Virus record (IMG/VR): IMGVR_UViG_3300035698_001938
Location: 1-12,661 of that record
Reading direction: 5' to 3' (one strand)
DNA length: 12,661 bases
From: a virus
In this document: piece by piece, positions 1-12,661 of the stretch
Position numbering within the stretch: position 1 is the first letter of the stretch
Layout: the number at the start of each line of letters is the position of its first letter
Position numbers and translations under genes: made by a program
Notes under the pieces: generated by a model
What the model was told of the DNA's origin: nothing
Databases searched by the model: none
The model's input: the letters and a program-made list of their open reading frames with translations, nothing else

Positions 1-101
1 AACCCCACCAACACACCCCACACCCTTCGGACCCCCCGCCACCCCACCCCACTATGATATGTATTAACGAATCTTGATTGGATTGATGTGTGTGTGTGTG
101 T
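1..101. repeat. Terminal direct repeat, copy 1. It is identical to 12561..12661, indicating a circular or terminally redundant genome with a unique length of 12,560 bp.
   Basis: Base-by-base comparison of 1..101 with 12561..12661 gives 101/101 identity. The repeat starts at the window edge and ends at the last base of the window. Confidence 0.97.
87..101. repeat. (TG)7T dinucleotide microsatellite (second copy at 12647..12661)
   Basis: tgtgtgtgtgtgtgt was read directly. It forms the 3' edge of the terminal repeat and is followed by AGGCCTCCA. Confidence 0.95.
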
Positions 102-132
102 AGGCCTCCATAAATTTATCTCACAAAATAAC

Positions 133-151
133 AAATTATATAATTTATAAT
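133..151 (+). promoter_or_regulatory. Perfect 14-bp AT palindrome AAATTATATAATTT plus two TATAAT hexamers (139..144, 146..151). This is a candidate late promoter (-10 or TATA element) or protein-binding site upstream of terL.
   Basis: The palindrome was read directly. TTATCT lies 17 nt upstream of the first TATAAT and is a weak -35. No transcript data are available. Confidence 0.3.
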
Positions 152-167
152 TTCGCCTGATGGCGAA
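152..167 (+). other. Hairpin TTCGCC-TGAT-GGCGAA (6-bp stem, 4-nt loop) just downstream of the TATAAT boxes
   Basis: The arms are perfectly complementary. Function is unknown; it could be a 5' leader structure or a binding site. Confidence 0.5.
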
Positions 168-269
168 CCTCGTGAAGTAATATAAAATATAAGGAGTGGG
201 CGATTAGACCCTATTATCAAATGAATGAAGCAGACCTATACTATTGGCTATCTTGCAGCATGAGCGACT

Positions 270-1535
270 ATGTTTAAGTGGGACAAATGGCAGAAGGAAG
301 TACTAGAAACAAAGGGAAACGTCACCCTACGGAGTGGCCGCCAAGTAGGAAAGAGCGAAGTGATATCTGCAAAAGCTGCGGCCTTTGCCCAGGAAAATCC
401 TGGGACGACAACCCTAATCATTGCAGCATCGCAACGTCAATCCTCACTACTTTTCGAAAAGGTGAGAGGGAACTTAGACCTAATAAACGAAAAAGAAAAG
501 ATATATGCAGAACCCCCAACCCTGACCAGGATAAGATTAAAGAACAAATCCCAAATATACGCATTACCCGCAGGAAGGACAGGCTATTTTATCAGAGGTT
601 TCACAATAGATATGCTTATAGCTGATGAAGCAGCATATATCAGCGAAAATGTTTGGCTGGCCTGTACGCCGATGATTGCTGTCTCGAGAAAACTCAGAGG
701 GATGGGATATATAATTCTCCTATCCACGCCATTCGGAAAAGGTGGCTATTTCTTCAACTCATTTACAGATGATGATTTCCGCAGCTTTCATGTGAGCAGC
801 GAAGATTGCCCCAGGATTCCTAAAGATTTCCTAAGAAAAGAAAAGCTAAGAATGACTAAAGCGCAGTACCGCCAGGAGTACTTAGGGGAATTTTGCGACG
901 AATGGAACCAATTCTTTCCTACAAATTTGATTAAGAAGTGTATGAATTTTATTGAGTGGAATAAAGCAGCGGATTACAAACCACAATACCGCTACTACTT
1001 AGGAGTGGACATAGCACGTTATGGAGGTGACGAAAATGCTTTTGTCGTATGCGAATTACATAAAGATAGTCTCAGAATTGTCAGATGTTTTACAACGGAC
1101 AGAGTGTCTACAACTGACACTATTGGAAGAATCGAAGCTATCGATAGGGAATTCAAGTTTAACAAAATATTTATTGATGATGGGGGAGTCGGTGGAGCAG
1201 TTACGGACATACTTCTTGATAGATTGGGAAGAAAGGTTGTGGGTCTTAATAACGCCAGCAAGAGACTACAAATCCAGGGCGAAGAAAAAAAACGCGGCAT
1301 TTTGAAGGAAGATTTATATAGCAATTCCTTAATGTTAATGGAAACGGGCAAGCTGGAACTTATATCTAACTTAATGTTGCTCCGCTCCCTCAAGAGCATA
1401 ACGTTTGAATATGGAGAGAAGGATAAGGCCAACCGCAACGTGAAGATTTACGGAGATTACGCACATTTAGCCGAGGCTATGGTAAGGGCCTGCTGGTGTA
1501 CGAAGGAAAGGGGCTTAGATATTTATGTATATTGA
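270..1535 (+). CDS. terL: Terminase large subunit (packaging ATPase plus nuclease)
   Basis: 421 aa. Walker A-like RSGRQVGKSE (aa 21-30) and Walker B-like DMLIADEAAY are present. The C-terminal half carries RNaseH-like nuclease signatures GVDIARYGGDENAF and IFIDDGGVGG. The start is the first ATG after an in-frame TGA at 261. Confidence 0.9.
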   Translation: MFKWDKWQKEVLETKGNVTLRSGRQVGKSEVISAKAAAFAQENPGTTTLIIAASQRQSSLLFEKVRGNLDLINEKEKIYAEPPTLTRIRLKNKSQIYALPAGRTGYFIRGFTIDMLIADEAAYISENVWLACTPMIAVSRKLRGMGYIILLSTPFGKGGYFFNSFTDDDFRSFHVSSEDCPRIPKDFLRKEKLRMTKAQYRQEYLGEFCDEWNQFFPTNLIKKCMNFIEWNKAADYKPQYRYYLGVDIARYGGDENAFVVCELHKDSLRIVRCFTTDRVSTTDTIGRIEAIDREFKFNKIFIDDGGVGGAVTDILLDRLGRKVVGLNNASKRLQIQGEEKKRGILKEDLYSNSLMLMETGKLELISNLMLLRSLKSITFEYGEKDKANRNVKIYGDYAHLAEAMVRACWCTKERGLDIYVY

Positions 1536-1592
1536 AGAAACAAGCCAAAATAACCAATAAACTTAAATAATTCAAAGATTTTAAGCCTTTTT

Positions 1593-1724
1593 ATGGAAAT
1601 AATCGCCAGAATGAAGCAATCCGAGCAGAATATCAAGAAATTAGACAAAAAACTTAATACTAAAGTCGATAAAGAAAAAGAAAAAGAAGAAGACCCAGAA
1701 GAAGCAGAGGAGGAAGAGGTATAA
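1593..1724 (+). CDS. 43-aa charged mini-protein (MEIIARMKQSEQNIKKLDKKLNTKVDKEKEKEEDPEEAEEEEV), not in the supplied track
   Basis: Hand-translated ORF. Its TAA (1722..1724) shares one base with the ATG of the next gene (TAATG coupling). There is no clear RBS and the sequence is low complexity. Confidence 0.35.
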   Translation: MEIIARMKQSEQNIKKLDKKLNTKVDKEKEKEEDPEEAEEEEV

Positions 1725-2107
1725 TGGCTTTCACAGGAATATACGTCCCAACAATCGCCGAATTTGAATATAAGTGTGGTGCTGGTGTTTCTTCAACATC
1801 TATAACCGAGGCTTTTGCCAATTCATATATAGGACAGGCCGAAGCCCTAATTAATAATCTCTGTAGGAAAGTGTTTGCGATAGATACTGCTGCGTTTACT
1901 GCTCTCCCAGCAAAAACAAGAGGAACACTCACCGAAGTCGCGAGCAACTTAGCCGCGATTTATGCCATTCAATACGATATGAGCGGCTTCTCCTCAAGAA
2001 TAGAAGCCGAGGACATGATTAATATTTTAAGAGATTCGGCACTAAGAGGTATGAGTTTGTTAAAAGATAAGAAATGGACTGACTTTTTATCCAAAGGCAC
2101 AATATAA
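1724..2107 (+). CDS. Hypothetical 127-aa protein, possibly a head-tail adaptor/connector
   Basis: A strong GAGGAGG lies upstream. The gene is coupled to both neighbours by TAATG. Its size, helical character and position in the morphogenesis block resemble gp6/gp15-type adaptors. No diagnostic motif was seen. Confidence 0.35.
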   Translation: MAFTGIYVPTIAEFEYKCGAGVSSTSITEAFANSYIGQAEALINNLCRKVFAIDTAAFTALPAKTRGTLTEVASNLAAIYAIQYDMSGFSSRIEAEDMINILRDSALRGMSLLKDKKWTDFLSKGTI

Positions 2108-2562
2108 TGTTATTCGACCATGACTATAAGAATTACCCCGAACTCACAAATACTCAGATTAATGAATTCGGCCTATCATCACCACATCAGCAAATAACCG
2201 AAGATTTTTACGCCACAGTCACCAAAGTACACGACGGCGACACCATCACATTAAAAACGGGCTTTAGGGATTTTGAATTTCCCCTAAGATTCCTTAATAT
2301 TGATTCTAAGGAACTCAATGAAGGAGGAGAAGCGGCCCGAGAGTTTGTCAAAGGTAGGATAGAAGGGAAGGAAGTTCAAATAAAGATTGACCCCAACCAA
2401 AGAGTAGGCAAATACGGCCGACTATTAGGTAATGTATTTTTTGGCGGGATGGATGTCGGTGAAGAAGAATTAAGAATAGGTCTCGCCCAACCCTTCGAGA
2501 AAAGAAGCGAGGGCAAACTCCCCAATTTAGATAAAGAATTATCGATAAAAAAATGGCTGTAG
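2107..2562 (+). CDS. Staphylococcal (micrococcal) nuclease-like thermonuclease, SNase fold
   Basis: 151 aa. It aligns by eye with S. aureus nuclease at VHDGDT, LRFLNIDSKE (equivalent to RLLLVDTPE, with the Arg, Asp and Glu catalytic positions kept), GGEAAREF, DKYGR-like GKYGRLLG and GLA. Confidence 0.85.
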   Translation: MLFDHDYKNYPELTNTQINEFGLSSPHQQITEDFYATVTKVHDGDTITLKTGFRDFEFPLRFLNIDSKELNEGGEAAREFVKGRIEGKEVQIKIDPNQRVGKYGRLLGNVFFGGMDVGEEELRIGLAQPFEKRSEGKLPNLDKELSIKKWL

Positions 2563-3386
2563 ATGTAGCAGGAGGAATCCTCAAGCAATCAGACGTAAGA
2601 GAAACAATTACCAATACAGAGGAAACTAACGTGAACTGGGAATTAGACTATGCCAGATTTGAGCAGCTAATAGATACTGGCTTCGCAATAGAAGGGATAT
2701 TTGTAAGCCCCGACGGATTACACGCTTATATCACATACGACACGGGCGGCGCTTCTACAATAGGGGAATATGTTTTTGGTACTAGGTGGGACATCTCCAC
2801 AATAACAGTAGTCAGAACCTTAGACGTAGACGCAAGAGACACCGCTATAAGAGGAATATTCTTTAAGGCAGATGGGACAAAAATGTATTTCTCAGGAAAT
2901 GCAAACGTAAGCGTTTACGAGTACGATTTAGCTACACCCTGGGATATTTCAACAGAGACCTACGTCCGCACTTATGCCGCGGGCGCTGGGGAAGTACCTT
3001 GTATATTTTTTAGAGATGATGGGAAAGAGATGTTTCTTGCTCGTCCTACTTCCAATTCAATAAAAACATTTAGATTGTCTACTGCATGGGATATTTCAAC
3101 AGGCACTTTAGTAGAAGATACTGGCGTCGCCCATCCTGTAGAAGCTTTCTTTTTTAGCAAAAACGGCCTTAAATTATATGTAGCATACGAAAGCGCAATT
3201 ATCAGCGAGTATGTATTGACTAAGCCTTTTGTAGTATCATCTAAGGGCGCAGAGAGCCTATTCACAATAACCCCCGACGGCAATGTCGCGGGACTATATT
3301 TTAAACCCAATGGGTCTAAGATGTATGTAGCAACATTCGACACTCACGACATTCAGGAATATTCAATAAAACGAGGGTGGAGATAA
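2553..3386 (+). CDS. Repeat protein, probably beta-propeller-like, with about five ~50-aa units; likely a virion or tail-associated protein
   Basis: 277 aa. The unit [IL]FF..DG.K[ML][YF]...(I/V).E[YF].L.T.WDIST recurs, with WDIST at aa 79, 130 and 179 and degenerate units before and after. The gene overlaps the nuclease gene by 10 nt. Confidence 0.6.
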   Translation: MAVDVAGGILKQSDVRETITNTEETNVNWELDYARFEQLIDTGFAIEGIFVSPDGLHAYITYDTGGASTIGEYVFGTRWDISTITVVRTLDVDARDTAIRGIFFKADGTKMYFSGNANVSVYEYDLATPWDISTETYVRTYAAGAGEVPCIFFRDDGKEMFLARPTSNSIKTFRLSTAWDISTGTLVEDTGVAHPVEAFFFSKNGLKLYVAYESAIISEYVLTKPFVVSSKGAESLFTITPDGNVAGLYFKPNGSKMYVATFDTHDIQEYSIKRGWR

Positions 3387-4498
3387 TGCCAGATACAGAC
3401 ATAGGAAGCGCAGACGCAAGCGAGTTAAGCACAGCCATGACTGATTATAGTGTCCCAACCGCAACAACAGACGCAGCAGGAAACAGCAACGAAACTCGAC
3501 ACCAATCTACAACATGGAGCCAAAACCTGGGATATTATAAGACTATTCCAGAACTAAAGACCGCAATCAACACGAAGGCCACATGGACGATAGGTGCGGG
3601 ATTTACAGCAGACCCAACCACTACCTTACTACTAGGCACAATAAAAGGAAATGGTATGGATACATTTAACTCAATTATCAAGAATCAAATTAAAGTCAAA
3701 GTTATCGACGGCGATTCGTATGCAGAAATAATCAGAGACAAACTCGATAATATCATTAATTTAAAGCCCATTGCCCCCGATTCTATGGTTTCAGTATGGG
3801 ACAAAAAAGGAAGAATCAAAAGATATGAACAGATAAACAAAGGCTCACCAAACAAGAGATTTAAACCAAATCAAATATTCCACTTAATGAGAGATAGGCT
3901 AGCAGACGAAATCCACGGGACGAGTGTAATTCCTTCTGTAGAATGGATAATTTTGGCTCGTAATGAAGCAATGGACGACTGGAAAGCAGTTCTCCACCAA
4001 AACATAAAACCAAGATGGAAAATATCTTTAGATACAGACGACACCGCACAAATCGCAGCGTTTAAGACAAAATACGACAAAGCAAACGCAGGCGGGGAAA
4101 ATATGTATATCCCTAAAGGAACTGTCGAAGTAGAAGTTTTAGGAGTTTCACCAAATGCAACCCTAAACCCCCTTGCATGGATTGACAAACTTAATGATTA
4201 TTTCTTCCAAGCTGTTAATACTCCTCAAATCATAGTAGGTAACGCAAAGGAATTCACAGACGCAAGCGGAAAAATAGTCTATCTTTCGTATGAGCAAAGC
4301 GTTAAAGCTGAACAGCTTTCAATAGAGGAGCAAGTATTAAGCCAGCTAAACCTAGAAATTAAATTAACATTCCCAGCAAGTCTACAAAATGAAGCAGTAA
4401 GCGACACACCATCAGAAACCGACACAATAGAAGAAGAACCACAAGAAGGGGCAGTACAACCCAATGATACTAAAACGGAGATGGAAGGGAAAAAATGA
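3386..4498 (+). CDS. Portal protein candidate
   Basis: About 370 aa from the ATG at 3386, which forms a TAATG overlap with the upstream stop and is preceded by GAGGGTGGAG. The track's GTG at 3377 is an alternative start. Size, acidic C-terminal tail and position between terL and the scaffold/capsid genes fit a portal. No profile search was run. Confidence 0.6.
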   Translation: MPDTDIGSADASELSTAMTDYSVPTATTDAAGNSNETRHQSTTWSQNLGYYKTIPELKTAINTKATWTIGAGFTADPTTTLLLGTIKGNGMDTFNSIIKNQIKVKVIDGDSYAEIIRDKLDNIINLKPIAPDSMVSVWDKKGRIKRYEQINKGSPNKRFKPNQIFHLMRDRLADEIHGTSVIPSVEWIILARNEAMDDWKAVLHQNIKPRWKISLDTDDTAQIAAFKTKYDKANAGGENMYIPKGTVEVEVLGVSPNATLNPLAWIDKLNDYFFQAVNTPQIIVGNAKEFTDASGKIVYLSYEQSVKAEQLSIEEQVLSQLNLEIKLTFPASLQNEAVSDTPSETDTIEEEPQEGAVQPNDTKTEMEGKK

Positions 4499-4632
4499 TA
4501 GAATCCGCACAATTAATTAGCACAGTCGGATTTCCGATTTTTGCTTTTTTGTTGATGTTTTATCAAAGCACAAAAACAATAAAAGACAATACTAAGGCAA
4601 TACGAGACTTAACAATTATGCTCAGGCGATAA
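4495..4632 (+). CDS. 45-aa single-pass membrane protein (MIESAQLISTVGFPIFAFLLMFYQSTKTIKDNTKAIRDLTIMLRR), possibly YvrJ-like
   Basis: Hand-translated and absent from the track. Its start overlaps the portal stop (ATGA). It has one hydrophobic helix followed by an amphipathic tail. The VGFPI...L motif resembles YvrJ-type small proteins as I recall them, unverified. Confidence 0.55.
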   Translation: MIESAQLISTVGFPIFAFLLMFYQSTKTIKDNTKAIRDLTIMLRR

Positions 4633-4633
4633 G

Positions 4634-5866
4634 ATGGGACAAACAATAAAAGAAAAGTATGATAGTATCAAAAAGAAAAGAACAGCGCCAGCGACGGAGC
4701 CAAAAGAAGAAGTAACCAAAGGCCCAACAGTAAGCAGCGCCCCAAGTAAAGATAATAGAAAACCCGATTCTTTTGTCCCTTTAAGTTCTGTCCCTGTTGA
4801 AGAAGATAGGGGAGGGAAAGCAGCTAGAGCAGGCACAGTCACAGAGGCCACAGGAAAACAGAAATTTTTCAGTAGTAAACCTGGGCAATTTGTAAGCGGT
4901 ATGTTAAGGGGAACACTCGCAGGCGACCCAATGGGACGAGACCCCAAAACAATGGGAGATATAGAAACAGCTGGACTTATGACCGGAGCAATAGCAAACC
5001 TGGCAAGTTTAAGCGCTATGGGTGGGGCAATATCAAGCCTAACAACTACGGCAAAAGCAACAACTAACACATTCGCAGGATGGACTATTGGCGGCCCCAC
5101 AGCAGAAGGATTCACAGGCGTAGCGACAAACACTTACACCGCCGGAGTAATAGGGGCAGCAGCAGCCAAAACAGGCAACTTAATTGCATGGGAAATTGCT
5201 GGGGCTTTAGGCTTCTCAGTTTATCTAACCAAATCTATTCTAGAATTAACACTAGGGGGAAAAATTTTCGGCGAATTTGTAGGCGTAGAAGAAGCGACCC
5301 AAACTGTGAGCATTATTGGACGAGACGCACTCGCAGCAGGAGACTTTGAAGGCTATGACATTATATCTAAAGCAAGAATGGAAGTTTTACAAAACGCGGA
5401 ATATTGGGACAGCAACGAGGCGCTTATACCTTATGCCAATTCAATCCAGGGATTAAAAGATTATAGACACTTAGCCATGACAGCGGCCGCAGTTCAAGAT
5501 AAATTAGCTATGGATATGAAGATAGCAGCAGAAATCGGCGAGAGCGAAAATGAAAAATATGCCAGGATAAAACAGGAAGAAATCGACCAACAAATCACAA
5601 TCACACAGAACAGTATAGCCTTAAATAAGCAATACCAGGAATGGAAAATGCAGGCTAGTTTAGACGCTCAAATAGATACTAGGGGCAGAGAAAAAAAAGC
5701 CATGATTGAAAACGCTGCTTTTTGGGCCGCAGAAGCAGCAAAAGAAAGACAAAGAGAAGCAGAGGACAGAATCGCAGTCGCTAAATTTTGGATGGCCTAC
5801 AAAAAGGAAGCTAACCAAATAGCACAAGATAGTAGACCAAGTAATCTAAAGTTTGGTCTAATCTAG
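4634..5866 (+). CDS. 410-aa Gly/Ala-rich hydrophobic plus coiled-coil protein (internal/ejection, tape-measure-like or scaffold-associated)
   Basis: It has a charged N-terminus, central segments such as GLMTGAIANLASLSAMGGAISSL and GVIGAAAAKTGNLIAWEIAGALGFSVYL, and a long Q/E/K/A-rich helical C-terminus. No enzymatic motif was seen. Confidence 0.5.
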   Translation: MGQTIKEKYDSIKKKRTAPATEPKEEVTKGPTVSSAPSKDNRKPDSFVPLSSVPVEEDRGGKAARAGTVTEATGKQKFFSSKPGQFVSGMLRGTLAGDPMGRDPKTMGDIETAGLMTGAIANLASLSAMGGAISSLTTTAKATTNTFAGWTIGGPTAEGFTGVATNTYTAGVIGAAAAKTGNLIAWEIAGALGFSVYLTKSILELTLGGKIFGEFVGVEEATQTVSIIGRDALAAGDFEGYDIISKARMEVLQNAEYWDSNEALIPYANSIQGLKDYRHLAMTAAAVQDKLAMDMKIAAEIGESENEKYARIKQEEIDQQITITQNSIALNKQYQEWKMQASLDAQIDTRGREKKAMIENAAFWAAEAAKERQREAEDRIAVAKFWMAYKKEANQIAQDSRPSNLKFGLI

Positions 5867-5877
5867 GAGGAAATAAT

Positions 5878-6180
5878 ATGACAGAAAAAAACCCCGCTGA
5901 GACAGGAGAAGATGAAAAGAATTCTAAGATTGCATCTAAAAATTCGCCCCCTACTTCTCCCTCAAATGAGGCCGAACAATCAGACGACATGATAACAAAG
6001 GCAACAGCCGCGGCAATCAGATTAGAAGAAGCAAACAAGACACAATCTGAACTATTAGACCGCCAAGAACGTATGATGGTAGAACAGAAACTAGGTGGAG
6101 AGACAGAAGCAGGCAAACCCCAAAAGCTAGACGAATCCCCCGAAGAATACAAAGAAAGGATAATGAAGGGTGAAAACTGA
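5878..6180 (+). CDS. Acidic 100-aa helical protein, scaffold-like
   Basis: AGGAGG lies 7 nt upstream of the ATG. The protein is E/K-rich and sits upstream of the decoration and capsid genes. Confidence 0.45.
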   Translation: MTEKNPAETGEDEKNSKIASKNSPPTSPSNEAEQSDDMITKATAAAIRLEEANKTQSELLDRQERMMVEQKLGGETEAGKPQKLDESPEEYKERIMKGEN

Positions 6181-6386
6181 TGGCAAGATTGAAGAATTTC
6201 CCTGAAATCGAAGAAAAGAAAGACGATTTGGAAATCAAAATGGGTACAAAAGAAAGAATAGTATGGGAAAAAGTAGCTAAAGAAGCAATGATACTCATTG
6301 AACAATCAGAAGAAAACCTCTTAATTCAAAGGGCCATGCTAAAGCTAGCCGATAAGAGAATAGAAGAAGAAAAACACAAAATTTAA
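6180..6386 (+). CDS. 68-aa coiled-coil protein, hypothetical
   Basis: TGATG overlap with the upstream stop, AAGGGTGA RBS, and heptad-like charged sequence. Confidence 0.45.
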   Translation: MARLKNFPEIEEKKDDLEIKMGTKERIVWEKVAKEAMILIEQSEENLLIQRAMLKLADKRIEEEKHKI

Positions 6387-6422
6387 ATATCTAATCCATT
6401 ATAAGCCTTATTAGGTGATAAT

Positions 6423-6845
6423 ATGGCAGATGAAGCAGTCCTTATGTATGAGACAGGCCTTCCTATTCCCATGACGTGCGCTGATTGCGCAGGAATCGAA
6501 AAAGGAGCCTGGTTAATTCTAGCAAATCCAATGACAGTCACAACCCACGCAGCTAATGACGAGGCTATCTGTGCAGGAGTAGCAGCAGCAGAGAAAATCG
6601 CAAATGACGGACAAACAACAATACCGGTTTATAGACAGGGAATATTCAAAGCTGCAGGAAGCGCGGCAAGTTCAACAGGCGCAGTCTTAGCATTATCAGG
6701 AACAGCACAAAGGCTAAAAACATCAGACACGTCGTGTTTACAATCAAAAGGCGCAGCAATCTCTTTAGAGGATTGCGGCGGAGCAGGAGAAACATTCCTA
6801 GTCGAATTAAAGCCTGGGATTGGCGGAGCAGGAGGTTTAAGTTAA
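6423..6845 (+). CDS. DUF2190-like head decoration/cement protein candidate
   Basis: 140 aa with a GGTGAT-N3-ATG RBS. The pattern KGAWLIL...AGVAAAEKIANDGQTTIPVYRQGIFK...GETFLVEL resembles DUF2190 proteins, which typically sit directly upstream of capsid genes. This is from recall and is not a search result. Confidence 0.5.
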   Translation: MADEAVLMYETGLPIPMTCADCAGIEKGAWLILANPMTVTTHAANDEAICAGVAAAEKIANDGQTTIPVYRQGIFKAAGSAASSTGAVLALSGTAQRLKTSDTSCLQSKGAAISLEDCGGAGETFLVELKPGIGGAGGLS

Positions 6846-6846
6846 A

Positions 6847-7758
6847 ATGGCAGACACAGCAGCACAAGCAGAGATTAGAGGCATAAATATTGATAAGCTG
6901 GCTAAAGGTTTTGCCGACGAGCAGAACATTCTTAAAAGGTTTGTTGTAAACTCCAAAACCAAAGCAAGAGAAATCCGATGGTATCAAAAAACCTCAGGAT
7001 TTTTAGATAGTTCCGACACAACAGACATAACAAAGTCACATATTGCCAACACTTCGAGCAAATCACTACCCGTTGTAGTAGAGCAATCATGGACTAGGCA
7101 GACATCTTATGTTAAGAAGTATTTCGTAGAATCACCACTATTTACTTTAGAAGATATTAAGGATTCTGACGTAGACATAATGGCTACTCATGTTAGAGAT
7201 TTAGTCAGGGCAGTAGAACGTAAAGTTGATTTGCAAATCTTCGCAATATTGACAGACGCACTAGCAGCCACACCAACACAACCACTCACAAATGGCGAGG
7301 TAACTGTTCAAAATACAGCAGCCACCGACGAATGGGACGTTGCAGCAACCGCAGACCCAATCGCAGATATACTTAACGGCAAGCAACTCATAAGAGCTGC
7401 GGGATATAATCCAGAAGGAAGCATGATTGGCATGAATAGCATTGAGCATAAGGAATTAATCCAATATCTCATTAATGTCAAAGGCTCAAGTATTCCACAA
7501 TTCGCAAGCGATAAAGTAAAGAGTGGAATAGTCATGGAGATACTAGGCTGCAATGTCGTAGTAAGTGAGGCATTTACTACAGATTGGGTAGTCCAATGGG
7601 TGCCAAGTAGAGCCCTAACATGGAAAGCGTTCACTCCAATAACCACCGCTATCATGGACGAACCAGGAATCGGCAAGAAAATAAGAGTATGGGAAGAAGG
7701 AGAGGCACTATTAACAGACCCAAAAGCAGTTCACGTTATTTCAAATACCAATACTTAA
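6847..7758 (+). CDS. Major capsid protein candidate (HK97-fold type)
   Basis: 303 aa. The size and the position after the scaffold-like and DUF2190-like genes fit a capsid protein. AGGAGG lies upstream and the junction is TAAAATG. No diagnostic motif could be verified by eye. Confidence 0.6.
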   Translation: MADTAAQAEIRGINIDKLAKGFADEQNILKRFVVNSKTKAREIRWYQKTSGFLDSSDTTDITKSHIANTSSKSLPVVVEQSWTRQTSYVKKYFVESPLFTLEDIKDSDVDIMATHVRDLVRAVERKVDLQIFAILTDALAATPTQPLTNGEVTVQNTAATDEWDVAATADPIADILNGKQLIRAAGYNPEGSMIGMNSIEHKELIQYLINVKGSSIPQFASDKVKSGIVMEILGCNVVVSEAFTTDWVVQWVPSRALTWKAFTPITTAIMDEPGIGKKIRVWEEGEALLTDPKAVHVISNTNT

Positions 7759-7759
7759 A

Positions 7760-7927
7760 ATGACGAAAGAAAACACTATCAGATTATATAAGGCTCTCAA
7801 AGCGCAGGGACACCCAGGCGCAGAAAAGATGTTAAATCAAAAACATTACGAATATCTCAAAGAGATAGCAGAGCCAAAGCAGGAGGTTAAAGAAGATGTC
7901 AAGAAGTCAAAGGGACGAACCAAGTGA
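7760..7927 (+). CDS. 55-aa basic mini-protein (MTKENTIRLYKALKAQGHPGAEKMLNQKHYEYLKEIAEPKQEVKEDVKKSKGRTK)
   Basis: Hand-translated. A TAAAATG junction links it to the capsid gene. Absent from the track. Confidence 0.4.
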   Translation: MTKENTIRLYKALKAQGHPGAEKMLNQKHYEYLKEIAEPKQEVKEDVKKSKGRTK

Positions 7928-8033
7928 GCCAGCTATCGTAGATAGCACAGCCACCAATTCAAGCGACCAAAAAGCACCCGTTAATCATCTGATTGACACA
8001 ATGGAAGAAGCAGGAATCATAGTTAAATCATAA
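7896..8033 (+). CDS. 45-aa acidic mini-protein (MSRSQRDEPSEPAIVDSTATNSSDQKAPVNHLIDTMEEAGIIVKS)
   Basis: Hand-translated. AGGAGG lies 9 nt upstream. It overlaps the previous mini-ORF by 32 nt in another frame and its stop forms a TAAAATG junction with the LamG gene. Confidence 0.45.
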   Translation: MSRSQRDEPSEPAIVDSTATNSSDQKAPVNHLIDTMEEAGIIVKS

Positions 8034-8034
8034 A

Positions 8035-8874
8035 ATGGCAGCAGGCGATATTTTACACGTAGCAGGAAACCTTCATCCATCTAGGCACGCCGCCAAATTC
8101 ATAGCTACAGAAGACCAAGCCGTAGTGATTGACGCTTTCGCAGTCGCGAGAGTAGCTGCAGGAGACACAGAAGGCACATTTTCGGCATGGGTCAATATCC
8201 CCGACATTACGGGAGACTATGGAATTATTTCATGTGGAAACACGGCCACTATAGAATTTGTCACTTTAAGAGTAACAGCAGGAAAGCTAGTCGTAGAACT
8301 TAACGACGCAACAGCCGATAGATTTGAGCATACTTCTACCAATGTTGTGATTATACCACATAGATGGCACCATGTCGCAGTGGCACAAAATGGATATTCA
8401 AGCGCACCTAAATTATATGTAGATGGTGAAGCAGTCGCACAAACTGTAACACTAGCAACCAATAATACTTTATGGTTTGGAACCCTATCACTTATGACTG
8501 ACGACGCAAGCATAGGAGCAGCAGAAGAAGCAGGAGCCGCAGCCCAAATTAGAGAATTCAAAGGGGGCATTTCTGACGTTAAATATTGGAGTGCAGAACT
8601 CACAGCAGAACAAGTTAAGAGCGATTATTTAGGACAATCCCCCTCACTTATTACAGGAACAGTAGCAGACCTAATCTCATGGTGGGATATGAAAGACGAT
8701 TATATAGATTCTGTCGCAGGACATGACGGAGCAGCAGGCGCCTCTATTCATTTATGCAGTCAATATTCTGAATTTACCTCAAGAATGGTAGAATTAGGCC
8801 AAGTCGTGGCAGATGATATATGTATCTCTGTGAATGATAAAGAGGGTCATTGTATAATTGTTAAGGCGGCGTAA
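8035..8874 (+). CDS. LamG / concanavalin-A-like jelly-roll domain protein (probable adhesin or decoration protein)
   Basis: 279 aa. It shows the LamG_3-type pattern FSAWVNIPD ... HRWHHVAVAQNG ... LYVDGEAV ... FKGGISDVKYWSAELTAEQV. Confidence 0.7.
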   Translation: MAAGDILHVAGNLHPSRHAAKFIATEDQAVVIDAFAVARVAAGDTEGTFSAWVNIPDITGDYGIISCGNTATIEFVTLRVTAGKLVVELNDATADRFEHTSTNVVIIPHRWHHVAVAQNGYSSAPKLYVDGEAVAQTVTLATNNTLWFGTLSLMTDDASIGAAEEAGAAAQIREFKGGISDVKYWSAELTAEQVKSDYLGQSPSLITGTVADLISWWDMKDDYIDSVAGHDGAAGASIHLCSQYSEFTSRMVELGQVVADDICISVNDKEGHCIIVKAA

Positions 8875-8875
8875 A

Positions 8876-9025
8876 ATGTCTAATACTTCTGGAGAGAAAG
8901 AACTAAAAAGAGCCTGGCCTCACACTACAGGATTAACCGCCGAGACAACCAAGCAAGAAGGGAGAGAATCGGCTCTAATACCTCAAAATTCCCTAGTGCC
9001 TAACAGGAAAAAAGTAGGATTATGA
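8876..9025 (+). CDS. 49-aa mini-protein (MSNTSGEKELKRAWPHTTGLTAETTKQEGRESALIPQNSLVPNRKKVGL)
   Basis: Hand-translated. It has a TAAAATG junction upstream and an ATGA overlap with the fibre gene downstream. Confidence 0.4.
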   Translation: MSNTSGEKELKRAWPHTTGLTAETTKQEGRESALIPQNSLVPNRKKVGL

Positions 9026-10578
9026 CCCGAACCAAAACAGACAGAATCTTAGGCCAACTAAGAGGCAGGCCAAGACCAAAGGCACCAATAGCCGCCAATC
9101 TAATTCTCCCAAATAACTCAGGCGACCACCAAAAATCTATCAAAAGAAATGCTCCTATCAATAATATAGATTTAGTCAATAAAGAATACGTTGATACATT
9201 AACCACAAACCATCCACACCAAAACGTAAATACAACAGCAAGCCCAACTTTTAAAATCCTAAACATAGGAAATTCTAATGCTTATCACAGAATCAATTTT
9301 TATGCTGGTGGAAGTCCGACGGGTGCGTCCATTGTATATGATAATGCCTATAACTGGATTGGTGTTAATGCTGATTTAGCTGTAAGCGGAAGAATATTTT
9401 CAACGAGTACTATTTCTACAACTGGTGCAGGGGATGATTTTTGGTTAGGCAATACAACACAGGCAAGCGCTTCTTTTCAGGCTTATGCCAATGGCAACTT
9501 AACAGCGAAAGGGATAACTACTCTTGGATCCACAGGACAAATGAGTATCGACGCTAGTGGCAATTTAGAAACTACAGGAACAGGAGAATTCAGCGGATTA
9601 GATATAGTTACAGGCGGGACAGCTGTAATATATTACGGTGATGGCGGGCCAGCTGATTCTTTAAGATTTCAGGGAAGGGGATTTATAGTAAATGACGTAG
9701 CTTACGGAAGCACAGGATTCGCTAACACTATTACCGCGGGTCTAAATTCTACCCTTGCGTCATGGACTATTAATGAAAATTTCATAGTTATTTCAAATAA
9801 TGAAAATATAGAATTGAAAACCAATACCGCAGCAAAAAAGATAACTTTTACCACAGCAACAATTGATGTTAATGGAGCAGATGTTAATTTAGATGATAAT
9901 AAATTACTAACTTTTGGGGGTACAATAACCGATATGCAACTCTCTAGTGATGGCACAAACGGCCTAATAACCGCCGCTACATCAATAAGACTAGGCACAG
10001 CAACAACTAACTACACCAAAGTGGAAGCAGACGGAACACTAGAATTTAACGGAAACGCTACAGTATGGGACGATTTAAGAACCCCTATCAATGCAGTCAA
10101 AGTGCCAACAACAAAAGCCCCAACATGGACGGCTTACTCCGCTGGTTTATTATTAGGTTTCACAGACCAAGCAGTCGAAGGAAATGAAGAAGAAGTTTAT
10201 TTTACTGTTCAATTACCTCACAGCTATAAAGAAGGGACAGATATAACCCCTCACATACATTGGTTAGTAGATTCTGGAACAATAGACCAAGACTGCAGAT
10301 GGGGCCTAGAATATGAATGGGTCAATATAGACGCTTCCTTTTCCGGAACAACTACTATTCATATTGACGCAAACCTAGACGCAAATGATAGACACTTAGT
10401 GAATGACTTTGCAGCGATATCAGGAGCCGCTAAAACAATCAGTTCTATGCTAGTATGCAGATTATTTAGAAATTCTAGTCACGAAAACGATACTTTAACA
10501 ACAACGGCCTTACTATTGGAAATTGATTTTCACTTTGAAAAGGACATGATAGGCTCAAGACAAATAACTACAAAATAG
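9022..10578 (+). CDS. Tail fibre / receptor-binding protein
   Basis: 518 aa and the largest gene. The N-terminal IDLVNKEYVD motif is typical of phage fibre N-termini. A T/G/N/S-rich beta-type middle region is followed by a distinct C-terminal domain (FTVQLPHSYKEGTDITPHIHW...WGLEYEW). Confidence 0.6.
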   Translation: MTRTKTDRILGQLRGRPRPKAPIAANLILPNNSGDHQKSIKRNAPINNIDLVNKEYVDTLTTNHPHQNVNTTASPTFKILNIGNSNAYHRINFYAGGSPTGASIVYDNAYNWIGVNADLAVSGRIFSTSTISTTGAGDDFWLGNTTQASASFQAYANGNLTAKGITTLGSTGQMSIDASGNLETTGTGEFSGLDIVTGGTAVIYYGDGGPADSLRFQGRGFIVNDVAYGSTGFANTITAGLNSTLASWTINENFIVISNNENIELKTNTAAKKITFTTATIDVNGADVNLDDNKLLTFGGTITDMQLSSDGTNGLITAATSIRLGTATTNYTKVEADGTLEFNGNATVWDDLRTPINAVKVPTTKAPTWTAYSAGLLLGFTDQAVEGNEEEVYFTVQLPHSYKEGTDITPHIHWLVDSGTIDQDCRWGLEYEWVNIDASFSGTTTIHIDANLDANDRHLVNDFAAISGAAKTISSMLVCRLFRNSSHENDTLTTTALLLEIDFHFEKDMIGSRQITTK

Positions 10579-10586
10579 GTGATACT

Positions 10587-10730
10587 ATGGCAACATATGA
10601 AGTTACAAAAAATGAAAAAGAAGAGTTTGTGATTGAAACAAAAACAGAAGAAAGAGACAGAACATATCATAAGCAATGGCTAATAGACGAAATTGCAAGA
10701 CTTAATAATCTATTAGAACAATTAAAATAA
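10587..10730 (+). CDS. 47-aa mini-protein (MATYEVTKNEKEEFVIETKTEERDRTYHKQWLIDEIARLNNLLEQLK)
   Basis: Hand-translated with a GGTGAT-N3-ATG RBS. It is the last gene of the late block. Confidence 0.5.
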   Translation: MATYEVTKNEKEEFVIETKTEERDRTYHKQWLIDEIARLNNLLEQLK

Positions 10731-10874
10731 CTATTACTCTACCTACAACCCCCTACACCACTCTATGCCTTCTCTTATAATAAATTAAAGGGAAAGAAAT
10801 AGCAAGTTGTCTACTTAAATGGATTTCTAGCGCCGCTAATATATAAATCTTTCTATTATACAGATATATTAGCA

Positions 10875-10884
10875 TATGATAGTA
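10875..10884 (+). repeat. TATGATAGTA motif copy (other exact copies at 10926..10935 and 4658..4667; 9/10 match at 12335..12344)
   Basis: Exact 10-mers were found by reading the sequence. The two intergenic copies are 51 bp apart. Confidence 0.8.
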
Positions 10885-10925
10885 CCTATATTCTATACAA
10901 CATATAACTATATAAATAAGTACTC

Positions 10926-10935
10926 TATGATAGTA
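10926..10935 (+). repeat. TATGATAGTA motif copy
   Basis: Exact 10-mer. It also shares an 11th base (T) with the copy at 4658. Confidence 0.8.
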
Positions 10936-10967
10936 TATATTTTTCCCCAAAAAACAAGAAACATAAA

Positions 10968-10993
10968 CTAGGCTGGTCTGCAAATCAGCCTAG
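10968..10993. promoter_or_regulatory. Inverted repeat CTAGGCTG-N10-CAGCCTAG, operator-like or a hairpin
   Basis: The 8-bp arms are perfect. The repeat ends 3 nt before TATAAT (10997..11002) and about 15 nt before the first early gene. Confidence 0.5.
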
Positions 10994-11008
10994 CTTTATA
11001 ATCAAAAG

Positions 11009-11302
11009 GTGATAAAAATAGCAAGCAAACAAGAACTAAAAGGGAGTGAGGCAAGAATTATAGTATATCTGGAAAATAGCGATAAGCCGATACATTATGT
11101 CAGAAAGATTGCAAGTAAGTTAGACATGGACTATGGATATTGCATTAAAATATTAATTGCTATGTTAGAAAAGGGATGGCTGAGTACTGAAAAGACATTT
11201 GCCAATCCTTCAAGAACCTATTATCACTTAACTCAAGAAGGTAAGTGGAAAATAGCTGTAGCAAACAACATAGCTTCAAAAAATATCGAGGTGATAGCAT
11301 GA
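11009..11302 (+). CDS. Winged-helix (MarR/ArsR/TrmB-like) DNA-binding protein; start codon uncertain
   Basis: 97 aa from the GTG at 11009. The pattern ARIIVYLENSDKPIHYVRKIASKLDMDYGYCIKILIAMLEKGWLS...YYHLTQEG is typical of a wHTH. No ATG lies near the 5' end. The GGTGAT at 11008..11013 would instead suggest initiation at the in-frame ATA at 11018. Confidence 0.65.
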   Translation: MIKIASKQELKGSEARIIVYLENSDKPIHYVRKIASKLDMDYGYCIKILIAMLEKGWLSTEKTFANPSRTYYHLTQEGKWKIAVANNIASKNIEVIA

Positions 11303-11631
11303 ACAGAGAAATACAAAAACAAATGACTATAGAAGATGGTAAGCATATAGGTGTAGTAATAGCAATCGAAGAAAGGACAAAGCCATATAAATATTTAGAC
11401 GTGGTGATAGAATTTGAAGAAGGAAAGAAAATTAAAGCTGGATATCCTGACTTCCTTAGTAGTGAATCTAAGCTGGGACAGTTACTCGCTAGATTTAAAG
11501 CCGACGTATCTACTCCTGGAAGCATCGTAGACCCTGAGAAGGTATTGATAGGCAAGAAGTGTCAGTTTATGACATTGAAGGAAGGAAAGTATAGCAATGT
11601 CATACCCGAGAGTGTTAAGCTAGTGGAATAA
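11299..11631 (+). CDS. 110-aa beta-rich protein, possibly an OB-fold/DUF669-like ssDNA-binding protein
   Basis: The ATG at 11299 has a GGTGAT-N3 RBS and an ATGA overlap with the upstream stop, so I prefer it to the track's 11245 start. The pattern DGKHIGVVIAIEER..YKYLDVVIEFEEGKKIKAGYP...LGQLL...DPEKVLIGKKCQF resembles DUF669 from recall, unverified. Confidence 0.6.
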   Translation: MNREIQKQMTIEDGKHIGVVIAIEERTKPYKYLDVVIEFEEGKKIKAGYPDFLSSESKLGQLLARFKADVSTPGSIVDPEKVLIGKKCQFMTLKEGKYSNVIPESVKLVE

Positions 11632-11633
11632 AA

Positions 11634-11843
11634 TTGACAACAGGACTAAATAAATGCTTCTTAAGAAGGCTAACATTCCACAGAGCAAACGAAAATAGCA
11701 CAAGAAGGAATATATATAAACTATTAAGGATATTTAGGTACCCATCATATCAGGCACGTATAATGAGGGACTGGAAACCTAATTACATATATCGTTTCCT
11801 AGAAGCAAGAGGCCAGGCTTATGTCACAGATAGACTTGATTGA
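11634..11843 (+). CDS. Doubtful 69-aa basic ORF with a TTG start
   Basis: There is no ATG near the 5' end and no RBS. It is R/K/Y-rich and fills an otherwise empty gap. It overlaps the next ORF by 23 nt. Confidence 0.25.
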   Translation: MTTGLNKCFLRRLTFHRANENSTRRNIYKLLRIFRYPSYQARIMRDWKPNYIYRFLEARGQAYVTDRLD

Positions 11844-11997
11844 AAGAAAGAAAGAATGTCCTTACTATGATGGTGAACTCTGCTACTTCCATAAGAAGAA
11901 TGAAGACCCAAATAGTAAATACCCCAAACAAGCACGCTTATTCAAATGTCCTGAGAAGAATAGATATGCTAGGTCTAAGTGTAGATTAAAAGAATAA
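11821..11997 (+). CDS. 58-aa Cys4 mini-protein, possibly zinc-binding (MSQIDLIERKKECPYYDGELCYFHKKNEDPNSKYPKQARLFKCPEKNRYARSKCRLKE)
   Basis: Hand-translated and absent from the track. It has four Cys in two pairs and is basic. Mini-proteins of this kind are common in early viral regions. Confidence 0.45.
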   Translation: MSQIDLIERKKECPYYDGELCYFHKKNEDPNSKYPKQARLFKCPEKNRYARSKCRLKE

Positions 11998-12074
11998 AAG
12001 GCCCTTGCAAGCAACGGCCTCCCACTTAGCCACCCCACCATTTAAACACCGAAAGAATGAACATCATAATGCAC
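11990..12074 (-). ncRNA. Candidate ~80-nt antisense sRNA
   Basis: On the minus strand, TTGACA (12108..12103), a 16-nt spacer and TATTGT (12086..12081) lie upstream, and the terminator above lies downstream. The body contains GGUGGGGUGGC. This is inferred from signals only. Confidence 0.3.
11999..12020 (-). terminator. Intrinsic-terminator-like hairpin oriented for minus-strand transcription
   Basis: The minus-strand RNA reads AGGCC-G-UUG-CUUG-CAA-G-GGCCU (5 bp, a G.G mismatch, 3 bp, CUUG loop) followed by UUUUAUUCUUUU. In the + orientation the stem is followed by CCCACUUAGCC with no U tract. Confidence 0.45.
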
Positions 12075-12101
12075 AACAAAACAATAAAATAGGTCATTGC
12101 A

Positions 12102-12326
12102 ATGTCAATAGAGAAACTAGAGCGTGTCATGTGGAGATTAAGAAAGAGAAACCCCAATAATGATAGGCCAACATGGGCAGAGCTAAGAAGGGCTATAATG
12201 TATGAATGTGGCACAGACATATCAACATTCTATAAGAATAAACAAGCTCTTGTCACTTTAGGATGGATTAAGACACGAAACGGCTTAAGGCTATCAATCA
12301 CTAATAAAGATATAACGGGAGAATGA
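12102..12326 (+). CDS. 74-aa winged-helix-like DNA-binding protein (regulator, or possibly a small-terminase-like pac-binding protein)
   Basis: The pattern PTWAELRRAIMYECGTDISTFYKNKQALVTLGWIKTRNG looks like an HTH plus wing. It is the last gene before the non-coding island and terL. Confidence 0.5.
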   Translation: MSIEKLERVMWRLRKRNPNNDRPTWAELRRAIMYECGTDISTFYKNKQALVTLGWIKTRNGLRLSITNKDITGE

Positions 12327-12340
12327 GGATAATGTATGAT

Positions 12341-12420
12341 AGTCCAAGCCTCGCTACGGCTATAGAACCTGTCTGCCTTCGGCACTCGACAGAACCTTAC
12401 GCCTTCGCTACGTTTGGACT
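12341..12420 (+). other. Nested stem structure with embedded direct repeats (candidate structured RNA or protein-binding array)
   Basis: The outer stem pairs 12341..12349 with 12412..12420 (9 bp including one G.U). The inner hairpin is 12369..12392 (CTGTC/GACAG plus TGCC/GGCA around a TTC(G) loop, with a 3-nt bulge). Direct repeats are TCGCTACG (12351..12358 and 12405..12412) and AGAACCT (12364..12370 and 12391..12397). Confidence 0.45.
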
Positions 12421-12536
12421 ACAGTCGCTCAGTCGTTACACTCCAGATGCTCAACGCCTAGTTCCCTCACCGTCTGATGGTCACTATGGCTCAGGCGCCA
12501 AAAGACAACCTCACGCAGTTCGGCATTTATATCTAT

Positions 12537-12553
12537 GCGGCCAATCAGGCCGC
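12537..12553 (+). other. GC hairpin GCGGCC-AATCA-GGCCGC
   Basis: The 6-bp stem is perfect and all G/C. The loop plus closing bases CCAATCA are complementary to TGATTGG at 12635..12641. Confidence 0.6.
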
Positions 12554-12612
12554 CAACCCCAACCCCACCAACACACCCCACACCCTTCGGACCCCCCGCC
12601 ACCCCACCCCAC
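12551..12612 (+). repeat. C-rich, G-poor tract with ACCCC-type repeats; the minus strand carries multiple GGGG runs
   Basis: A hand count of 12551..12610 gives 40 C, 14 A, 4 G and 2 T. It reads ...CAACCCCAACCCCACCAACACACCCCACACCCTTCGGACCCCCCGCCACCCCACCCC. The complement has at least 6 runs of G3 or longer. Confidence 0.9.
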
Positions 12613-12661
12613 TATGATATGTATTAACGAATCTTGATTGGATTGATGTGTGTGTGTGTGT
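12561..12661. repeat. Terminal direct repeat, copy 2 (identical to 1..101)
   Basis: See copy 1. It contains the distal part of the C-rich tract, a TATGATA motif, GATTG GATTG and (TG)7. Confidence 0.97.

Follow-up and report, generated by a model that had tools for sequence, protein, structure and literature searches.

A 12.56-kb portal-terminase genome without a recognised replicase, probably that of a minimal, host-replisome-dependent virus of archaea

Viruses whose particles are built with a portal and a terminase are thought to need fairly large genomes. The smallest isolated tailed phages are Mycoplasma virus P1 (11.7 kb), Salmonella phage astrithr (11.6 kb) and the phi29-like Salasmaviridae (16-20 kb). 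Phages phi29 and P1 have linear genomes with inverted terminal repeats and encode a protein-primed family-B polymerase together with a terminal protein, and packaging in phi29 is driven by a pRNA-dependent ATPase. Satellites that form capsids reside in a chromosome, encode an integrase and a replication initiator or primase of their own, and lack receptor-binding fibres. Metagenomic "twilight/fringe-zone" HK97 genomes were described by Aguilar et al. 2026, with 2,728 contigs of 11.6-20 kb that have direct terminal repeats (DTR) and Duplodnaviria genes (PMC13669383); the group highlighted in that study is gut-derived, has genomes of about 8.75 kb and encodes an encapsulin-like capsid, an integrase and RepA, but no terminase, portal or tail (PMC13669383). 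Here we analyse IMG/VR virus record IMGVR_UViG_3300035698_001938, a stretch of 12,661 nucleotides (nt) that is called the window below. We estimate a probability of about 0.6 that an autonomous capsid-portal-terminase mini-virus of archaea, belonging to the Duplodnaviria and dependent on the host replisome, is represented in full by the window.

Positions 1-101 of the window equal positions 12561-12661 exactly, which gives a unit of 12,560 bp, and IMG/VR classes the record as one with DTR. All credible genes are on the plus strand, and most of them abut or overlap their neighbors. The termini and the completeness of the window were judged by comparison with relatives. When IMG/VR was searched with the capsid protein, 74 loci were recovered, all on contigs of at most 12.9 kb, and five of these relatives close on themselves through repeats of 55-170 nt in contigs of 11,075-12,430 nt. 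In relatives that are permuted with respect to the window (e.g. L010 and L007) the window's last genes are found directly before terL, so these contigs span the junction from 12661 to 102. The repeat of two closed relatives falls within terL, which suggests that the repeat in this family reflects a circular or permuted molecule and not a fixed physical end; that of the window most likely arose where the assembly of a circular or circularly permuted genome overlaps itself. One inverted repeat was found in the window, an internal 20-nt palindrome. The original prediction, made from the letters of the window and a list of its open reading frames (ORFs), had proposed a complete genome of about 12.56 kb at the extreme low end for portal-terminase viruses. 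Both statements hold, given the exact repeat, the closed relatives in the same size range, the syntenic relatives, all but one of no more than 13 kb, and the permuted contigs that cross the junction.

Nine of 27 long contigs, namely L024, L028, L038, L042, L043, L044, L051, L052 and the window, start 0.2-0.6 kb upstream of terL, which is well above chance. The site is not homologous among them, and for this reason the clustering was rejected as proof of physical ends; it could mark a packaging start or a feature that breaks assemblies.

The relatives form a widespread, uncultured family with genomes of approximately 11.0-12.6 kb. An exhaustive search of 1.84 billion representative proteins with a capsid profile yielded 266 clusters (E<=1e-3). 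In ten capsid clusters the longest contig was never above 12,964 nt, and a member with an E value of only 1.4e-18 lies on an 11-kb contig with a similar gene set. We also scanned a collection in which 185,579 species of bacteria and archaea are represented by one genome each. Six relatives were found there, all as free-standing contigs of no more than 12 kb in bins of unrelated metagenome-assembled genomes (MAGs), and no chromosomal copy was present in the collection. Gene order is kept across the family while the contigs are rotated against each other: terL, adaptor, nuclease, a variable slot, portal, a protein of about 400 amino acids (aa), two small acidic proteins and cement protein, followed by capsid, LamG in some members, a 49-aa protein, fibre and small early genes. 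The family is apparently undescribed; no published description was found in a literature search that left out Wu et al. 2024 (doi 10.1038/s41564-024-01839-y, DPANN viruses).

The packaging and capsid set put forward in the original prediction, comprising TerL, portal, capsid and a DUF2190-like protein, was confirmed by profile searches (Table 1). The TerL matches to solved structures cover both the ATPase and the nuclease domain of a Thermus-phage TerL, and its best match among GenBank phages is that of Halogranum tailed virus 1 (HGTV-1), with 31% identity over 94% of the protein. The product of the capsid gene is predicted to be an HK97-fold major capsid protein, with a Phage_capsid_4 match of 24.5 bits, under Pfam's 27-bit cut-off, alongside the PHROG match. 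Neither the capsid protein nor the portal had a tblastn match in 50,697 GenBank phage records, and profile searches of PDB sequences gave no usable match for the capsid protein or the cement protein. From their position and composition, the two small acidic proteins that precede the cement gene are candidates for coiled-coil, scaffold-like proteins. The window thus has the HK97-type capsid protein, the portal and the two-domain TerL by which viruses of the Duplodnaviria/Caudoviricetes type are recognized.

The original prediction had stated that no adaptor-sized protein was present. The 127-aa protein encoded after terL contradicts this, since its model matches adaptor folds. An AlphaFold 2 (AF2) model (pLDDT 82) was used in an exhaustive VIA-align search, and the first 31 matches (Z 9.2-6.0) are neck, portal-tail or adaptor-family entries of phages, archaeal viruses or gene transfer agents, with the exception of rank 11, a nuclear magnetic resonance structure titled only B. 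subtilis YqbG. The matches include P74-26, phage 812, Mu, HK97 gp6, T7-like gp11, a gene-transfer-agent virion and, at rank 29, the portal-entry chain 8qqn_PX of Haloferax tailed virus 1 (HFTV1), and the first clearly unrelated entry appears at rank 32. Single Z scores are modest for a helical protein of this kind, and it is the uniformity of the list that identifies the protein as an adaptor. Foldseek returned no match at E<=0.001 and a PDB profile search no usable one. On the strength of the modeled fold, we therefore assign this protein as a predicted head-to-tail adaptor.

A fibre and a LamG protein had also been proposed, and both are borne out by the Pfam match of the latter and by the fibre-like character of the former in ESM Atlas. 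Members of the fibre family range widely in length, from 59 to 604 aa, and would have an N-terminal anchor that is conserved and a C-terminal part that varies. The 49-aa protein is always encoded directly before the fibre gene and is translationally coupled to it. The LamG protein probably binds a receptor. The slot between nuclease and portal is a swap site, filled in the window by a beta-propeller protein, a candidate tail hub or adhesin, and in about 30 relatives by an unrelated protein of about 210 aa (e.g. L004:1534-2172) that has no Pfam match. The tail parts that were recognized are thus the adaptor fold and the fibre-like protein, and Pfam and PHROG revealed no nozzle, tube, sheath or tape measure.

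Nor did Pfam and PHROG searches of all window proteins detect a polymerase, primase, helicase, Rep, integrase, tape measure, tube, sheath or endolysin. Among 138 accessory proteins of at least 95 aa collected from all relatives, Pfam again recognized none of these, and no holin family, and profile scans of the window and of these 138 proteins found no family-B polymerase or terminal protein. The accessory proteins did match C5 and DOT1-like methyltransferases, ERCC4 and RusA nucleases, a CcdA-like protein and carbohydrate-binding or beta-helix domains. The scans agree with the earlier report of an absent replicase, integrase, tail tube and endolysin. Missing endolysins and missing replicases are common among archaeal viruses. 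The yardstick that had been applied (phi29 and P1, an endolysin, TerS) is bacterial, and does not suit an element whose promoter grammar points to an archaeal host.

The block at 11009-12326 and the 410-aa protein had been named as the places where a polymerase, primase or Rep might be found, and neither yielded one. The early block holds DNA binders, two of the winged-helix type and one predicted OB-fold protein, together with proteins of 58-69 aa, and not enzymes. The best solved match of the first winged-helix protein is AspA, which binds the centromere of an archaeal plasmid. The AF2 model of the 110-aa protein shows a five-stranded barrel with helices, and Foldseek ranks PrgE of plasmid pCF10 first (E 1.6e-4, TM 0.65), ahead of further OB folds, among them single-stranded-DNA-binding protein (SSB); the model thus indicates an OB-fold, SSB-like DNA binder. 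Besides the window's own copy it has 17 homologues on contigs of no more than 16 kb. The statement that no replication gene is recognizable therefore stands as far as a replicase is concerned, and fails in that a protein of replication-accessory type can be recognized by structure. The 58-aa protein, with four cysteines, is possibly a zinc ribbon. The 74-aa winged-helix protein had no match in a PDB profile search and is a candidate regulator or minimal small-terminase-like DNA recogniser.

The 410-aa protein consists of a basic low-complexity N-terminus, a Gly/Ala-rich hydrophobic center and a helical C-terminal half with a repeated FW..Y. The family ends in a conserved S.LNFGLL-type C-terminus (NLKFGLI in the window), and an alignment with 34 homologues has only three near-invariant positions and no conserved catalytic residues. 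A PDB profile search with the family found no match, and the ESM Atlas model is disordered or helical (pLDDT 0.44) with only low-scoring helical-repeat proteins as look-alikes. These sequence features make it a candidate internal (ejection) or scaffold-like virion protein and not an enzyme. The 45-aa single-pass membrane protein upstream of it may have a membrane-active or exit role; a 51-aa protein of relative L082 has a precomputed Pfam match to YvrJ, and its likeness to the 45-aa protein is a reading by eye.

Two non-coding regions stand out. The AT-rich gap between the late and early genes is a candidate promoter and origin region. Allowing one mismatch, the 10-mer TATGATAGTA occurs six times on the plus strand of the window against 1.1 expected, a number reached in none of 200 shuffles, with exact copies at 4658, 10875 and 10926 and copies with one mismatch at 6072, 10446 and 12335. 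The G+C-rich island upstream of terL is a candidate packaging-recognition region. Ten relatives (L042, L038, L008, L005, L007, L010, L024, L026, L002 and L052), whose overall G+C is 36-48%, have islands of 59-70% G+C (150-nt window) within 600 nt upstream of terL, which resemble the island of the window in composition alone, with no nucleotide similarity to it. Scans of the whole window for tRNA genes and Rfam families found nothing.

To ask which host this virus might use, we surveyed promoters in genes that follow a gap of at least 60 nt, allowing one mismatch in a TTTAWATA-like box. Of 247 such first genes, 44 have a box that begins between -32 and -27 relative to the start codon; elsewhere there is about one per position. 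At a spacing of about 30 nt, the cement gene has a TATA box in 49 of 71 relatives, and the adaptor gene in 20 of 44. The window has CTTAAATA before the first gene of the late operon and TTTAGATA before the propeller gene, at the distances given in Table 1. A box about 30 nt before the start codon fits TBP/TFB promoters of archaea and leaderless transcripts, and is at odds with sigma-70 geometry. Throughout the family, genes start in the archaeal manner, with a TFB recognition element (BRE) and TATA box and leaderless first genes.

A more specific clue is a 22-nt BRE/TATA element, of which the window has a perfect copy at 10837-10858 on the minus strand (10858-10837). One relative is binned in a Pacearchaeota MAG, and among 401 genomes of that MAG's phylum 55 contain this 22-mer with no more than one mismatch, at 65 places, whereas the reversed control was found in none; one of the 55 is the unpublished G363, and the claim holds without it. 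No copy was found in 121 genomes of the phylum of the Thaumarchaeota MAG or in 101 of that of the Patescibacteria MAG, and we estimate the probability of a split of 55/401 against 0/222 as approximately 1e-10 (hypergeometric). The reverse complement of the 22-mer consists of a purine-rich BRE followed by TTTATATA and lies 13-39 nt upstream of the first ATG in the eight genomes inspected, at a spacing of 18-22 nt in five of them. The downstream genes are mutually unrelated, and the element therefore appears to be a lineage-typical promoter and not a mobile repeat. As the element is rare among the relatives, it ties the virus of the window to that DPANN phylum to a greater degree than it does the family at large. 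A search of the 401 genomes with 12.5 kb of the window's DNA found short matches only, to low-complexity Glu/Lys-codon stretches and to the promoter 22-mer, none of which was examined as a CRISPR spacer. We infer that the host is an archaeon, probably a member of the DPANN. The window's copy is not followed by a start codon at the usual 18-22 nt; it may serve as the promoter of an antisense or non-coding transcript that crosses the late operon's end.

Several observations weigh against an autonomous archaeal virus with a complete genome. Contig comparison does not distinguish a circular molecule, a permuted one and one with a short physical repeat. One relative contig of 15,966 nt (L082/L086; ENA contig k141_899099), the sole relative above 13 kb, has about 5 kb of extra genes that match no family; it lacks a terminal repeat, and in the extra part Pfam finds no replication gene and only a weak C2H2 zinc-finger match. 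The nozzle or tail-tip protein was not identified, so the model of the particle is incomplete, and the 410-aa and 49-aa proteins and the small early ORFs have no assigned function, which leaves room for a novel replication initiator. As to the host, the MAG bins of the relatives are scattered over Thaumarchaeota, Pacearchaeota, Patescibacteria, Anaerolineales, Bacteroides and Richelia. The 22-mer is exact in the window alone and near-exact in one relative, only two of about 80 relatives have a copy at <=3 mismatches, and the window's copy faces left, opposite in direction to all genes and with no obvious gene ahead of it. Finally, no host link was obtained from a CRISPR spacer, a provirus or a tRNA.

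These points have to be set against what the alternatives would require. It is very unlikely that a larger genome was cut short or wrongly closed to give this contig: the 15,966-nt contig speaks for such an error, but there are six independent closed genomes of 11.0-12.6 kb, no other member of the roughly 80 relatives exceeds 13 kb, the same limit holds for the longest contigs of the ten capsid clusters, and permuted relatives cross the junction of the window. A complete genome could still belong to a satellite that makes its own heads and takes replication and/or tail parts from a helper virus, as do capsid-forming phage-inducible chromosomal islands (cf-PICIs) and P4. The very small genome, the lack of a replicase, tail tube, identified nozzle and lysis gene, and the staphylococcal-type nuclease, which could serve interference, are all compatible with this option. 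It had been offered in the original prediction, yet nothing positive emerged in its favor: no integrase or Rep is found in about 80 relatives and no chromosomal copy in the species collection, the element encodes its own adaptor, fibre and LamG proteins with receptor-type domains, and the small size is kept across deep divergence. We regard a satellite as improbable. Somewhat less doubtful, though still clearly a minority view, is an autonomous virus that encodes its own replication initiator in unrecognizable form, either among the early proteins or in the 410-aa protein. Initiators of unknown fold are found in many archaeal viruses, the sub-clade of the window conserves an early trio of winged-helix, OB-fold and winged-helix proteins, the first of which resembles a plasmid centromere binder and the second PrgE of a plasmid, and the TATGATAGTA repeats are over-represented in the AT-rich region. 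Against this, the early proteins are only 58-110 aa, the early module is not shared by the family as a whole, other clades have different early genes on the minus strand, the 410-aa family has no conserved catalytic residues, and no match to a nucleotidyl-transferase or HUH fold was obtained.

It is also unlikely, and far more so than a hidden initiator, that the element is a small podovirus-like phage of bacteria with reduced genomes, whether of the candidate phyla radiation (CPR/Patescibacteria) or others. Relatives are binned in MAGs of Patescibacteria, Anaerolineales, Bacteroides and Richelia, the NCBI record of one OB-fold homologue is labeled Bacteroidota, and Shine-Dalgarno-like GGAGG/GGTGA precedes about a quarter of the internal genes. 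However, bins of free contigs of 5-12 kb are unreliable, the TATA peak about 30 nt before start codons is unlike the geometry of sigma-70 promoters, the 22-mer is absent from the 101 genomes of the Patescibacteria phylum, and about 80 genomes contain no endolysin or holin family, while the nearest TerL is that of an archaeal virus. An autonomous virus of archaea that uses the host replisome is therefore the reading that we carry forward.

If so, the host replisome would copy the entire viral genome, with the winged-helix proteins recruiting it to the AT-rich repeat region at 10731-11008 and the OB-fold protein coating single strands. TerL would cut and package concatemeric or circular DNA, starting near the G+C island upstream of terL, and such packaging could give the circularly permuted or circular assemblies that are observed. 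The particle would have a small isometric head and a stub tail of adaptor and fibres. For a T=3 head, a published scaling relation predicts a genome of 11.78 kb (95% interval 8.1-17.1 kb), and for T=4 one of 17.98 kb (PMC7762592). Genomes of 11.0-12.6 kb, as in this family, coincide with the T=3 prediction, and we therefore propose a small isometric T=3 head. Release would not need an endolysin, since the archaeal host would have no murein, and the 45-aa membrane protein may take part in it. As a tentative extension, to which we give somewhat less than even odds, the family could be the smallest autonomous portal-terminase lineage known, a deep, uncultured branch of the archaeal "tailed" viruses living on ultra-small DPANN archaea. 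Its head would probably be T=3 and its tail made of adaptor and fibres alone, and, having no replicase of its own, it would take over the replisome of a host that is a symbiont with a reduced genome.

A globally spread family of 11-12.6 kb without a replicase shows how far the portal-terminase type of virion can be stripped, and the isometric T=3 HK97 capsid, which has long been sought, might naturally be looked for among its members. If the link to a DPANN host is true, a major group would be added to the very thin catalogue of DPANN viruses. The analysis also illustrates that lists of missing genes drawn up from expectations based on bacterial phages are misleading for archaeal viruses.

The features of the window are collected in Table 1. 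Two observations concern particular relatives. Three closed relatives that form one clade (L004, L034 and L051) carry their early module on the opposite strand; it has no genes in common with the early block of the window and includes an ERCC4-type nuclease (L051:8899-9357). In a contig of the Pacearchaeota MAG (G001:C42:4655-5388, the same region as L080) the capsid match falls into two pieces and contains one in-frame TGA, which could reflect a broken copy, a sequencing error or recoding.

Table 1. Features of the 12,661-nt window, with the evidence for each
Feature	Position	Strand	Evidence or remark
Left copy of terminal repeat	1..101		C-rich tract and (TG)7 run; equals 12561-12661
TerL, ATPase and RNaseH-like nuclease	270..1535	+	PHROG_2 5e-42; Terminase_6N 5e-9
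43-aa acidic protein, first late-operon gene	1593..1724	+	CTTAAATA box at 1562, 31 nt before ATG
Predicted head-to-tail adaptor, 127 aa (HK97 gp6 / Mu / T7 gp11-like fold)	1724..2107	+	AF2 and VIA-align; in 45-49 relatives
Staphylococcal-nuclease-like (SNase) endonuclease	2107..2562	+	Pfam and PHROG; kept in ~30 relatives
Beta-propeller (PD40/WD40-like) protein	2553..3386	+	Pfam; own TATA box at 2526, 27 nt before ATG
Portal protein	3377..4498	+	Phage_portal 1.3e-10 (above Pfam cut-off); PHROG portal 1e-16
45-aa single-pass membrane protein	4495..4632	+	No Pfam match itself
410-aa low-complexity helical protein	4634..5866	+	Aligned with 34 homologues
Two small acidic proteins, 100 aa and 68 aa	5878..6386	+	Scaffold position; kept in 48 and 23 relatives
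Cement/decoration protein, DUF2190 (Phage_cement_2, PF09956)	6423..6845	+	22/30 homologues match PF09956, best E 9e-10
Predicted HK97-type major capsid protein	6847..7758	+	Phage_capsid_4 3.8e-5; PHROG major head protein 7.5e-9
Two overlapping small ORFs, 55 aa and 45 aa	7760..8033	+	Second kept in 5-17 relatives
LamG/concanavalin-like lectin-fold protein	8035..8874	+	Pfam LamG 2e-15; PHROG virion structural protein
Conserved 49-aa protein	8876..9025	+	tblastn in 40 relatives
Fibre-like protein, 518 aa	9022..10578	+	Resembles trimeric tail fibres in ESM Atlas
AT-rich control region (candidate), late/early gene gap	10731..11008		Two exact TATGATAGTA repeats 51 bp apart
Winged-helix DNA-binding protein, 97 aa, PadR-like	11009..11302	+	Best solved match AspA, E 4.6e-4 (weak)
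Predicted OB-fold, SSB-like DNA-binding protein, 110 aa	11299..11631	+	AF2 pLDDT 91.5; Foldseek
Two small basic ORFs, 69 aa and 58 aa	11634..11997	+	Not conserved in relatives
74-aa winged-helix protein	12102..12326	+	Last gene before terL in 7-8 relatives
G+C-rich non-coding island	12327..12661, continuing 102-269 upstream of terL		Composition

Compared with the systems described at the outset, the element works like a minimal short-tailed virus. It shares with the smallest isolated phages its size class, a short-tailed layout without tube, sheath or tape measure, and an HK97-fold capsid with a portal. Unlike phi29 and P1, it has no polymerase, and it has a direct terminal repeat, a classical TerL with a nuclease domain and archaeal promoters; given the direct repeats, the classical TerL and the lack of a protein-primed polymerase, it is not a member of the phi29/P1 group. 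It has ties with archaeal tailed viruses such as HGTV-1 and HFTV1, through the nearest TerL, the adaptor match to an HFTV1 entry, the promoter grammar and the lack of an endolysin, whereas those viruses have genomes of 30-144 kb, full tails and usually replication genes of their own, and the window has 12.6 kb and neither of these.

Satellites of the cf-PICI and P4 type resemble it in their 10-15 kb, in having a terminase, portal, capsid and head-tail connector, and in lacking tail tube genes, but they are integrated, carry an integrase and a primase or initiator and have no fibres, and in each of these respects the window is the reverse. Like the contigs of Aguilar et al., the window and its relatives have DTR and Duplodnaviria genes, and the closed relatives lie on both sides of the 11.6-kb minimum set by isolates. 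In contrast to the group highlighted there, the family of the window has a terminase, portal, adaptor and fibres and has no integrase or Rep, and the window is therefore not an encapsulin-like mini element. Small genomes of this size class are thus already known in bulk, while the portal-terminase family itself is apparently new.

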